DNA from: Snodgrassella gandavensis
GTDB lineage: Bacteria > Pseudomonadota > Gammaproteobacteria > Burkholderiales > Neisseriaceae
Direction: 5' to 3'
DNA length: 7,344 nt
Assembly: GCF_914768025.1 (NCBI RefSeq)
Contig: NZ_CAJZCE010000023.1
Location: 1 to 7,344 of the forward strand
Positions 1 through 1,380 of this stretch are shown piece after piece. How positions within the stretch are numbered: position 1 is the first letter of the stretch; every line of letters begins with the position of its first letter. The position numbers and the translations under genes were made by a program. Below the pieces are notes generated by a model that had not been told where the DNA came from, searched no databases, and worked only from the letters and a program-made list of their open reading frames with translations.

Positions 1-1
1 A

Positions 2-115
2 AAGCTCGGCTATAAATGGAATCATAAACGGGTGTATCGGGTATATTGTGAATTAAAGCTTAATCTGAGGGTAAAGCGTAAACACCGCATTCCTCCACGA
101 AGCCCGGAAAGATAG
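2..115 (+). pseudogene. IS3-family transposase (OrfB) internal fragment; its 5' part lies outside the window and it is cut off at the junction with the inserted element
   Basis: Frame 2 translates as [37 protein letters not shown]. The NHKRVYR-x-Y...L-x-LR-x-KRK pattern is typical of the segment just before the DDE (rve) domain of IS3-family OrfB proteins. The frame hits TAG at 113..115 and no + strand rve-like coding follows anywhere in the window. Confidence 0.6.
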
Positions 116-119
116 TGTT
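109..119 (+). repeat. Copy 1 of an exact 11-nt direct repeat AAGATAGTGTT, spanning the IS3-fragment/element junction
   Basis: Identical string at 109..119 and 1177..1187, same orientation. Copy 1 covers the point where the IS3-like reading frame collapses. Confidence 0.9.
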
Positions 120-124
120 TTAAC

Positions 125-130
125 TGTCAA
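125..130 (-). promoter_or_regulatory. Outward-facing consensus -35 hexamer TTGACA at the recombinase-distal end of the element; candidate half of a circle-junction promoter
   Basis: The - strand reads TTGACA-GTTAAAACACTATCTT-|flank, which puts 16 nt between the hexamer and the inferred end at ~109/110. The flank has no -10 at the right spacing (CCGGGC). Confidence 0.35.
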
Positions 131-208
131 CAAAAACTTTACACATATCGAATAAAATTGCAAAATAACAACAGCCTAGAAATCGCCAACCATACCGCAA
201 AATTAACA

Positions 209-1144
209 CTAACTTACATTATATGCACAATTCGTCTTATAAACCGTGTACGCATAAATCGCAAGCTTACGCATAAGTGCCACAATAATAACCTTGGGCA
301 TCTTACCATTATCCTGCAACCTAGCCACAAAATCAGGATACAAGTTCTTTGAATAAGCAACCATTGCAGGCATATACAATGCAGCCCTATACTCAGGCTT
401 GCCAACTTTCGATATGTGCTCTCTACCTTTCAACGATGTGCCAGATTCCATCTTGCGAGGATTCAAACCAAGATAGGCTACAAACTGATTCGCAGATTCA
501 AACGTATTAATAGAAGCCAAAATCGACAACAAAACTGCACTGGAACTAAAACCAATACCCGGAATTGTCTGTAACAATTTATGCTTACGACCTAAATCTA
601 CATTACTCCTAAAAAATGCCCTCAGCATTTTTTCTACTTCCAATAATTGAGTATCAAAATGCGCTATATTGGACTCAACAAGATGCCTTACCAGCCCCGG
701 AACCTCCAACAGCTTCACGCGCTCAGATACCCTCTGTTTCCTCAAACGATGATACATACCTACTAACAGCCTTAATTCCGCCACTGATTCATCTAATGGA
801 CTATACAACCTTGGCTTCATCGCTTGGCAATAATCGGCTATTAACAACGCATCACGCTTATCAGACTTCATACGCAACATACTGGCTTTAGCGAAATAAT
901 GAACCTTTGCCGGATTCTCTACAGATACGCACACATCATTAGCACCCAAAAACTCGACCAATGATTGCCAATATGCCCCAGTAGCTTCCAGACATACATG
1001 CACATCGTCATACAGAGCCAACAAACTCATCAACTCATCATAACCAGCCCGACTATTCTGCACTTTCAGATAAACCTCATTATCAGCATCAAGCACACAA
1101 CAATCCAACGTTTTCTTGCTTACATCTATTCCCACATAAGTCAT
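209..1144 (-). CDS. IS110/Piv-family DEDD recombinase (transposase), 311 aa
   Basis: The track ORF 209..1171 starts at a TTG. The first ATG (1144) gives MTYVGIDVSKK, the usual IS110 N-terminus. DEDD-domain motifs are GIDVSK, CLEATGAYW and KSDKRDALLIADY. The C-terminal Transposase_20-like block is LQTIPGIGFSSSAVLL...AYLGLNPRKMESGTSLKGREHISKVGKPEYRAALYMPA. A purine-rich AAGGTTAGG lies just upstream of the ATG. Confidence 0.9.
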   Translation of the reverse strand: MTYVGIDVSKKTLDCCVLDADNEVYLKVQNSRAGYDELMSLLALYDDVHVCLEATGAYWQSLVEFLGANDVCVSVENPAKVHYFAKASMLRMKSDKRDALLIADYCQAMKPRLYSPLDESVAELRLLVGMYHRLRKQRVSERVKLLEVPGLVRHLVESNIAHFDTQLLEVEKMLRAFFRSNVDLGRKHKLLQTIPGIGFSSSAVLLSILASINTFESANQFVAYLGLNPRKMESGTSLKGREHISKVGKPEYRAALYMPAMVAYSKNLYPDFVARLQDNGKMPKVIIVALMRKLAIYAYTVYKTNCAYNVS

Positions 1145-1336
1145 TGACCTAACCTTATATTCAGCTTCCAACAGCTAAGATAGTGTTCAAATTCCAGACT
1201 TGAAATACGCTTTACGACCATTGCTTGAATCTTTCCTACAACCTCTTTCGGTTTTGCTATCAGCCTAAGTCAATGGCCGCCGATGCAAGTAGCTAGTTTA
1301 CATCCAAAATTATTCAATATTAAACAATTTCAGCTA
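1145..1336 (-). ncRNA. Candidate bridge/seek-RNA-like leader of the IS110-family recombinase (limits approximate, hypothesis only)
   Basis: This ~190-nt non-coding leader has no credible ORF. It contains a sense copy of the element-end sequence (1187..1177) and, 4 nt upstream, a segment complementary to the adjacent flank (1201..1192, 8 Watson-Crick plus 2 G:U pairs). I could not fold a convincing two-loop structure by eye. Confidence 0.25.
1177..1187 (+). repeat. Copy 2 of the exact 11-nt direct repeat AAGATAGTGTT, 33 nt upstream of the recombinase ATG
   Basis: Exact match to 109..119. Confidence 0.9.
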
Positions 1337-1380
1337 TATCCTATTCTAAACCCTAAAACCTTATCGCTCGCCGCTGGGCA

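Follow-up and report, generated by a model that had tools for sequence, protein, structure and literature searches.

A predicted bridge RNA and an IS110-family recombinase as the putative integration module of a Snodgrassella filamentous prophage

How does a filamentous phage with no recognizable integrase come to be joined to a broken transposase gene? The question is raised by a stretch of 7,344 nucleotides (nt) of Snodgrassella gandavensis DNA, referred to throughout, at its full length, as the window, which is a nearly complete Nf/MDA-like inovirus prophage with all of its long open reading frames (ORFs) on the minus strand. In minus-strand reading the order runs from an 85-aa ORF through Rep_trans, four small proteins, a TspB-like pIII, a DUF2523/pVI-like protein, Zot and a 56-aa ORF to ~370 nt of non-coding DNA, the gene for a recombinase of the IS110 family of insertion sequences (ISs), another 97 nt of non-coding DNA and a 109-nt piece of IS3 OrfB, which is coding on the plus strand (Table 1). 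The inovirus module (Rep_trans, coat, TspB-like pIII, DUF2523/pVI and Zot) is co-oriented, and a terminal IS110-type transposase stands in the integrase's place; the tyrosine and serine integrase families had no match among the nine large ORFs of the window. A preliminary description made from the sequence alone had remarked on both the shared orientation of the recombinase and the phage operon and the lack of such an integrase, correctly in each case. From the sequence comparisons that follow, we consider it highly probable that the integration module comprises an IS621-like recombinase and a phage-encoded bridge RNA, and that the copy in the window lies in IS3 orfB.

Boundaries of the mobile unit

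Window positions 1..111 are 92.7-94.6% identical at the nucleotide level to two IS3 copies of S. communis LMG 28360 (L001:11563-11672 and 16690-16800; blastn), and blastn found no IS3 match elsewhere in the window, so that IS3 resumes nowhere within it. An intact IS3 copy (L001:11020-12220), bounded by TG... inverted repeats, encodes an 85-aa OrfA (HTH_Tnp_1) and a 278-aa OrfB, in which HTH_21 spans residues 55-99 and rve residues 113-210. Because the OrfB fragment of the window ends near residue 108 and rve starts at 113, the break falls just before the DDE domain. In recombinase orientation the intact copy reads ...ACTGATAGC-CT-TTCCGGGC... (GATAGC-CT) versus ...AACACTAT-CT-TTCCGGGC... (ACACTAT-CT) in the window, a comparison that places the break at a shared CT dinucleotide at 110..111 and makes position 112 the last base of the element. 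The preliminary description had placed the interruption of the OrfB frame at ~110, where the DDE domain should follow, had seen no plus-strand continuation, and had proposed alignment to an intact copy as the route to the exact site; all three points are borne out by these comparisons. It had also contrasted the locus with the dRS3 repeats of Neisseria prophages and expected a different target, which is upheld. The exact dRS3 repeat (ATTCCC-N8-GGGAAT) is absent from the window, the target here being IS3 orfB, and the sole match with one mismatch, ATTCCCTTCTTGACTGGAAT at 6883..6902 inside rep, is attributed to chance because 42 of 200 shuffles do as well.

The ends of the unit were defined by relatives, among them L001 (S. 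communis LMG 28360), L139 and L140 (S. communis wkB12), L141 (S. alvi) and L047 (another sample). A right end (RE) of the form ...TTGACAsTTAArACACTAT-CT occurs in five related sequences and is followed by four different flanks, namely IS3 orfB in the window and in L047, where both the junction and the guides described below are the same, ATTATTAATAG in L044, ATTTTTGTTTG in L045 and L046, and ATCCCCTAAAATAG in L048; homology among these sequences stops exactly at ACACTAT-CT. Wherever a contig extends further upstream (L044, L045, L049, L139 and L141-143), the recombinase remains attached to zot and the rest of the phage, a linkage kept across independent contigs and genomes whose recombinases are 80-96% identical. 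The left end (LE) is seen in three complete prophages as flank-CT-TATATATTAGCCCTATGTTAA... (CT-TATATATTAGCCC), next to rep, at position 381 of L044, 9846 of L139 and 9787 of L141, with mutual homology again stopping at CT. The first phage ORF, at whose ATG the window stops, begins ~65 nt downstream of this end, which itself lies ~6 kb from the RNA gene described below.

As the left end is ~6 kb away in three complete prophages, the mobile unit is the whole phage (7022, 7295 and 7226 nt in L044, L139 and L141, respectively) and not a 1.3-kb IS, and the earlier proposal that recombinase and phage form a single insertion is upheld by both ends, the right one abutting four flanks while joined to the phage. 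At 7.0-7.3 kb, including ~10 phage genes, the unit falls outside the 1.2-1.6 kb of a compact IS110-family element. CT is present at both ends of L044, L139, L141 and the Neisseria-type prophage L146, giving a two-base core with no terminal inverted repeats. The rejoined empty site of L141 was absent from all of the loci retrieved. With regard to two findings that the preliminary description had named as potentially contradicting it, related genomes deposited as complete circles keep the transposase between zot and rep rather than lacking it, and the only phage-less copy of the recombinase found is the decayed remnant in L001.

The window itself has only the right junction, the last ~65-70 nt of the left end and its flank lying past position 7344. 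By analogy with the relatives, we infer that the far flank is IS3 as well. If it is IS3 orfB, the expected left junction is ...GGTACTGATAGC-CT-TATATATT, or in recombinase orientation ...GGTACTGATAG(C)-CT-TATATATTAGCCC, ~65-70 nt beyond 7344. A 7521-bp S. gandavensis contig, 177 bp longer than the window, encodes a recombinase 100% identical to that of the window. If the excess consisted of ~67 nt of left end and ~110 nt of flank, the flank would be the counterpart of the 109-nt IS3 stub on the right. Such a two-sided stub is as expected if the extra bases lie past 7344 and the assembly was broken in a repeat on both sides.

The recombinase and a candidate bridge RNA

The recombinase resembles IS621 over nearly its whole length, with residues 2-309 aligning to the IS621 transposase (8wt6, E 2.4e-54); ISCro4 (9t56) is alignable too. 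D7, E53, D95 and D98, the predicted catalytic residues of a RuvC-like DEDD domain, align with D11, E60, D102 and D105 of IS621, and in the Tnp domain the S234-G235 pair of an ESG motif, with the predicted catalytic serine, occupies the position of S241-G242. Each of these IS621 residues is required for recombination (PMC11208158). The recombinase of the window is presumably active. Identity to Neisseria phage transposases is 42-45%; in scans of genomes and metagenomes with the recombinase the relatives were at most 40% identical, mostly Bacteroidales IS110 elements in the metagenomes, the exception among the genomes being L001.

Directly upstream of the recombinase lies a candidate bridge RNA gene that the preliminary description had passed over. 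RNAalifold predicts a 5' hairpin followed by two stem-loops, each with a large internal loop under a 4-6-bp distal hairpin, and this predicted fold with two internal loops is the architecture of IS110 bridge RNAs. A covariance model, R1, built from six Snodgrassella sequences recovered full-length matches ending at the transposase start codon in the circular human-saliva inoviruses L164 (E 8e-10), L145 (E 1.6e-9), L163 and L144 (E 1.4e-4), in the Neisseria-type prophages L146 and L149 (E 1e-5) and, weakly, in the lemur-saliva inovirus L165 (Dulem virus 50; E 0.014). R1 matches lie directly upstream of the transposase in nine sources, with full-length ones in six more distant phage records and prophages. 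Among the nine best sequences 93% of cells are paired and 14 of 35 pairs are compensatory; the observed score is reached by none of 500 shuffles, and slid controls of this alignment pair at no more than 46%. The candidate RNA is thus found far outside Snodgrassella, and is presumably expressed.

Both start signals of the recombinase gene, its ATG and its Shine-Dalgarno sequence (AAGG), lie within the stretch occupied by the 3' arm and the right donor guide of the RNA (1137-1161), so that folding or processing of the RNA may be coupled to translation of the recombinase.

The guides assigned to the donor loop match the ends of the element. Beyond the target blocks the sequence is invariant, GAACACTATCT-TAGCTGTTGGAAGCTG-AATATAAG-GTTA...ATG, and AACACTATCT, the part shared by left donor guide and right end, is found twice in the window, against an expectation of 0.03. 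The reverse complement of the right donor guide reads CT-TATATT, and the left-end junctions of L044, L139 and L141 read CT-TATATATTAGCCC. Circular genomes provide the joined ends, that is, the phage attachment site (attP): RE and LE are adjacent downstream of the transposase as TTGACTGTGAAATACACTAT-CT-TATATATTGCCC in L145 and as TTGACGGCTTAATATACTAT-CT-TGTATATTGCG in L144. In L144, ATACTATCT appears both as the left donor guide and at attP, where Snodgrassella has ACACTATCT, and the right donor guide is AATACAAG, paired with an LE of CT-TGTATATT, as against the Snodgrassella guide AATATAAG. Thus, the donor guides covary with the attP ends.

Two other sequence features were considered and rejected. 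The 11-nt repeat AAGATAGTGTT (109-119 and 1177-1187) might mark the ends of a 1.07-kb IS, but the upstream copy is part of the conserved donor loop, and homology to the phage runs on beyond that copy in every relative but the L001 remnant. A perfect 10-nt complementarity between the linker at 1206-1215 and the IS3 flank at 71-80, 30 nt from the junction, was considered as an extra guide; other lineages have nothing comparable, and the match is probably due to chance.

The target loop has the layout GACTTAG-[9 nt]-AAAACCGGAAGAGGTTG-[8 nt]-ATTNAAGC, in which two hypervariable blocks flank a conserved hairpin within an otherwise 90%-identical stretch. A single rule relates these blocks to the integration sites: the 9-nt block corresponds to the left flank, and the 8-nt block to the reverse complement of the core plus right flank, of each phage's own site. 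In the window the left guide GCTGATAGC corresponds to the site CTGATAGC-CT and the right guide TAGGAAAG to CT-TTCC, the intact orfB target being GATAGC-CT-TTCC. The corresponding pairs are AACAATAGC(T) with AACAATAG-CT and GAAAATAG with CT-ATTTT in L141, TGATGTAAC with TGATGTAA-CT and AGGGATAG with CT-ATCCC in L139, and GTAAGTTAC with TAAGTTA-CT and, more weakly, TATTATAG with CT-AT.AT in L044. When all guides were compared against all sites, own guides fitted own sites at 8-9 of 9 positions on the left and 6-7 of 8 on the right, and cross pairs at 1-6 of 9 and 3-6 of 8.

The sites differ by lineage, being IS3 orfB for the window, the IS3 left inverted repeat for S. communis wkB12 and an intergenic position, between a DEAD-box helicase gene and a SIMPL gene, for S. 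alvi (L141). The L139/L048 lineage is flanked by ATCCCCTAAAATAGTACAGC, the left inverted repeat of that same family of IS3, which is found uninterrupted as TGTAA-CT-ATCCCC... in L001, L139 and L140, so the landing lies 5 nt inside this repeat. IS3 has therefore been struck by sibling phages at two places, within orfB in the window and L047 and at positions 6-7 of its left inverted repeat in the L139 type. L139 has a further left-end junction (L139:9259) in another IS3 left inverted repeat, which indicates that the same guides were used at least twice. The relationship extends to a Neisseria-type phage with an identical recombinase at two loci (L146:9948-10060 and L149:7178-7290), both reading TTCAGACGAC-CT-TTTTTT, whose guides ...ACGACC and GAAAAAAG fit these sites. 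The L146/L149 site is one arm of a DUS-like terminator hairpin and not a dRS3 repeat. A bridge RNA would explain the change of target.

Proposed mechanism and competing explanations

We propose that the phage is an IS110 element whose left arm has expanded to hold a complete inovirus, in the order left end, rep through zot, structured intergenic block, bridge RNA, recombinase and right end. The circular replicative form would join the ends as ...TTGACAGTTAAAACACTAT-CT-TATATATT..., which would serve as the donor site, attP; the donor loop would pair with both sides of this junction and the target loop with a chromosomal N7-8-CT-N4-5 site, and the recombinase would then swap strands at the CT core. 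In the window, the target loop (G)CTGATAGC ... GGAAAG would direct insertion to ...CTGATAGC-CT-TTCC... in IS3 orfB, a multicopy and dispensable target, splitting the gene before its DDE domain. Sibling phages, differing mainly in the two guide segments, would each be directed to their own matching site.

Integration would also part the -35 hexamer, in the right end, from the -10 hexamer, in the left end, of what would be a sigma-70-type promoter directed at the first phage ORF and rep. Across the core of the circular relatives the two hexamers are spaced as TTGACT-18-TATATT (L145) and TTGACG-18-TATATT (L144), directed towards rep, and the right end of the window joined in silico to a Snodgrassella left end gives TTGACA-17-TATATT; the window keeps only the -35 half (125..130), followed by IS3 sequence. 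This arrangement suggests a junction promoter that could act as an expression switch.

Several observations weigh against the proposed module or against its use at this site. The left junction of the window copy lies outside the window, and its placement inside IS3 is based on one junction and on analogy with relatives. Regarding the RNA, the paired fractions are inflated by the fitting of alignment A4, that of the nine best sequences, to the model; the single-sequence fold energy is no better than that of shuffles (z = -0.5); an Rfam scan at E<=1 returned no family; and no sigma-70-like promoter for the RNA was called on the minus strand of 1..1750. Regarding the guides, the right guide of L044 fits its flank at only 6 of 8 positions, the sharing of guides and sites within a lineage could partly reflect common descent and not repeated targeting, and the left target guide of the window fits IS3 one base further from the core than those of L044, L139 and L141. 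The last discrepancy would follow either if the IS3 copy that was hit was one base shorter or if a bulged or near-cognate site was used.

Among the alternatives, the one that survives best accepts that the module is phage-borne and holds that the window copy is not a clean IS3 insertion, having arisen by a near-cognate or half-match event or through later rearrangement by IS3. The left guide that is one base out of register with IS3 could be read in this way, IS3 has remodelled related prophages by cutting the right end in L001 and truncating zot in L140, half-match insertions have been reported for IS621 (bioRxiv 10.64898/2026.08.31.748434), and the far end of the window copy lies outside the window. 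However, the two target half-sites, of 8 and 6 nt, both fit one 14-nt stretch of IS3, which is beyond chance, junction and guides alike recur in L047, from another sample, and the extra 177 bp of the longer contig, if they lie past 7344, fit ~67 nt of left end and ~110 nt of repeat. We regard this alternative as improbable and retain the guided insertion into orfB as the preferred reading.

Far less credible is the proposal that the segment from 110 to ~1350/1505 is an autonomous IS110-family IS lying between IS3 and an unrelated prophage, with a merely coincidental linkage to the phage. That homology with L044 and L045 forms one conserved block over window 110..1505 and then gives way to a variable stretch would be compatible with such an IS, as would the existence of short Logan contigs of 1.1-1.4 kb and of the phage-less copy in L001. 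Yet no junction of the left-end type occurs beside the RNA, and CT-TATAT, to which the right donor guide is complementary, is instead found ~6 kb away, at the far end of the phage, in three prophages and directly beside the right end in circular phage records. In addition, the short Logan contigs are colinear with the phage up to their ends, the L001 copy is a pseudogene remnant without a target loop, and IS3 does not resume within the window. The least probable alternative, that the phage integrates through a host pathway (XerCD at a dif-like site, as for CTXphi) and that the transposase is a passenger or a Piv-like invertase, draws on the observations that many inoviruses use XerCD and that Piv/Irg relatives can invert DNA, but is opposed by junctions that are CT cores with guide-matching flanks at four unrelated sites, by prophage ends that coincide with the ends specified by the donor loop, and by a scan of the window in which no inverted-repeat pair brackets an invertible segment.

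In the L001 remnant (L001:9963-11019) the recombinase gene carries an in-frame stop, the target loop is missing, and an IS3 right inverted repeat removes the last 9 nt of the right end. At its left junction, GGAC-TGTAA-CT-TAGCTG, the 5 nt with which an IS3 left inverted repeat starts are joined through the CT core to the sequence beyond the left donor guide. Such a product would be expected if a left-end junction recombined with the guide-encoding DNA, a copy of the right end, as a pseudo right end, and it resembles an aberrant excision. In S. communis wkB12 a second prophage (L140:5874 and 10942-11400) has its zot truncated by IS3 and lacks the recombinase, and the recombinase of L139 itself is split into two ORFs.

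Phage genes, related systems and implications

The features of the window are collected in Table 1. Its GC content ranges from 0.29 to 0.50. The rep homologues are 91-92% identical in S. communis and S. alvi. The four small proteins were assigned by synteny with L044 and L141, PHROG matches being weak only. An inverted-repeat scan of the intergenic block upstream of the RNA resolved a GC-rich hairpin (1375-1417) and a long nested hairpin (1439-1498), and this block is probably a cis element of the phage, either an origin or a packaging signal. L145 and L146 have a similar block upstream of the RNA, GGATACCCCTTGAC... followed by a GC hairpin. Exact look-ups of the recombinase, Zot and Rep proteins and a megablast search of the whole window against phages returned no match, and IMG/VR contained only truncated copies of the same phage group.

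Table 1. Features of the 7,344-nt window, in order of position
Feature	Position	Strand	Evidence or remark
IS3-family OrfB fragment, ~residues 72-108 of 278; right half of integration target	1..109	+	Frame-2 translation of 2..115
Core dinucleotide CT (AG on + strand), common to target and element	110..111	-	
Right end of phage/IS110 unit, terminus AACACTAT; TTGACA -35 hexamer at 125..130	112..208	-	
IS110-family (IS621-like) recombinase, 311 aa from ATG, intact	209..1144	-	PF01548 E 7e-28, PF02371 E 1.8e-20
Candidate bridge RNA gene, ~145 nt; target-binding and donor-binding stem-loops	1137..1281	-	RNAalifold consensus
Predicted donor-binding loop module	1137..1202	-	Consensus fold and covariation
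Putative right donor guide AATATAAG	1154..1161	-	Reverse complement CTTATATT = core + LE start seen in relatives
Putative left donor guide ACACTATCT	1186..1178	-	Identical to RE terminus + core (window 118..110)
Predicted target-binding loop module: basal stem, internal loop, distal hairpin AACC/GGTT	1214..1280	-	
Putative right target guide TAGGAAAG	1231..1238	-	Reverse complement CTTTCC = core + right flank
Putative left target guide GCTGATAGC	1256..1264	-	Fits IS3 left half-site ACTGATAGC-CT
Conserved 7-bp hairpin directly 5' of bridge RNA	1282..1304	-	
Conserved structured intergenic block; hairpins 1375-1417 and 1439-1498	1340..1505	-	Kept in L044, L045
Small hydrophobic ORF, 56 aa, downstream of zot	1518..1688	-	64-65 aa equivalents in L044, L045, L141
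Zot / pI-like assembly ATPase	1695..2810	-	PF05707 E 9e-28
pVI-like minor coat protein (DUF2523)	2807..3088	-	PF10734; phrog_1242
pIII-like adsorption protein, TspB-like C-terminus	3088..4728	-	PF05616 E 2.4e-12
Small structural/ssDNA-binding candidates: 42 aa, 93 aa, 62-aa coat-like with signal peptide, 101 aa	4771..5745	-	
Rolling-circle replication initiator, 453 aa from ATG	5736..7097	-	PF02486 E 1.2e-34
First phage ORF, 85 aa, its ATG at the window edge	7087..7344	-	Aligned to L044:450-512

As an Nf-type inovirus whose integration enzyme belongs to the IS110 family, the phage is of a known kind. An IS110-type 'transposase' has been recognized in filamentous phages since 2005, when the best database match of MDA ORF9 was the IS621 transposase (PMC2212043), and Nf prophages carry pivNM/irg, are inserted in dRS3 and show a CT duplication at their flanks (PMC4471427; PMC2212043). 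With the Neisseria Nf/MDA prophages (Kawai 2005, Bille 2005) the Snodgrassella phages share a host family, Neisseriaceae, the gene order rep, TspB-like pIII, pVI, zot and IS110-type transposase, as judged by synteny with L146, and the CT duplication at the ends. They also share the donor ends ACACTAT-CT-TATATATT, and a homologous RNA upstream of the transposase, with the Neisseria-type prophages and the circular saliva records. In contrast, the host here is Snodgrassella, the target is IS3 and not dRS3, and the target guides vary between closely related siblings; moreover, the published accounts of Nf/MDA that we consulted describe a transposase and a repeat target and no RNA guide. The suggestion in the preliminary description that this is a different lineage is consequently only partly sustained, in that the divergence of the recombinase from its Neisseria counterparts favours it and the common donor ends do not.

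The demonstration that IS110 enzymes are bridge-RNA recombinases dates from 2024 (PMC11208160; PMC11208158). Compared with IS621 and the IS110 group (Durrant 2024; Hiraizumi 2024), the Snodgrassella elements have the same DEDD RuvC-like and Tnp Ser-Gly domains, alignable over their full length, the same CT core, a predicted non-coding RNA 5' of the gene whose target and donor loops each consist of a guide, a small hairpin and a guide, left guides identical to the top strand and right guides that are its reverse complement, and, as seen in circular relatives, promoter-like -35/-10 hexamers split across the circle junction. They differ in that the unit spans 7.0-7.3 kb, its left terminus and the RNA being separated by a whole inovirus, and in that the circular form is the replicating phage genome and not a transient intermediate. 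Because the inovirus is interposed, the junction promoter would point into genes for phage replication that lie 6 kb upstream of the RNA.

Sequence-specific landing in multicopy or mobile DNA is a habit shared with other repeat-targeting IS110/IS1111 elements, such as IS621, which enters REP sequences, and IS1111-attC elements; the Snodgrassella phages are distinguished by their phage cargo and, for the window copy, by a position in the coding sequence of IS3 orfB and not in a terminal repeat. IS4321 and IS5075 land in the inverted repeats of the Tn21 family. Other inoviruses recorded with an IS110-type transposase (the saliva Inovirus D_HF* records, Dulem viruses and Thermus phiOH16/Zuza) are circular with a co-oriented transposase between zot and rep, but their annotation stops at 'transposase'. 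Such transposases occur in the Thermus inoviruses phiOH16, Zuza8 and Zuza27 and in the lemur-saliva Dulem viruses, matches that extend the association of inoviruses with IS110 beyond Neisseriaceae. Ariapisin virus 1, a 7227-nt circular bee inovirus with S. communis as predicted host, is said in a 2025 bee virome paper to encode transposases among other genes (PMC11860568), and is an indirect indication of a secreted circular ssDNA form; the L141 element, at 7226 nt, may be the same phage, to judge from length and predicted host alone.

In the library that we searched, no paper was found linking a bridge RNA with a filamentous phage, an inovirus, a prophage or Neisseria, and a report outside that library is possible. 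The phage-encoded bridge RNA, the natural retargeting among siblings and the use of IS3 as a landing site appear to be undescribed. Near-identical phages that differ in two guide blocks and sit at sites matching those blocks would constitute field evidence for natural retargeting of a bridge RNA with a 7-kb replicating cargo, and would offer a simple explanation for the landing of Nf/MDA phages in repeats. They would likewise supply new pairs of bridge recombinase and RNA with common donor ends and differing targets, as well as testable rules for predicting inovirus integration sites from sequence. For the biology of the bee gut, they show the IS3 copies of Snodgrassella acting as landing pads for prophages.

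More tentatively, and with the balance tipping slightly towards doubt, we suggest that Nf-like inoviruses across Neisseriaceae pick their attachment sites by means of a phage bridge RNA that has been reprogrammed several times in Snodgrassella, twice against the same IS3. If so, rep expression would be switched between prophage and replicative form as the junction promoter is split and rejoined. IS621 has been described as forming a single-stranded top-strand circle on excision (2026 preprint), and if IS110 enzymes generally excise such a circle, excision would yield the coding-sense strand directly, the strand that is packaged in the Ff and MDA phages. The specificity for the bacterial attachment site (attB) would evolve by a few base changes in an RNA loop and not in the protein.

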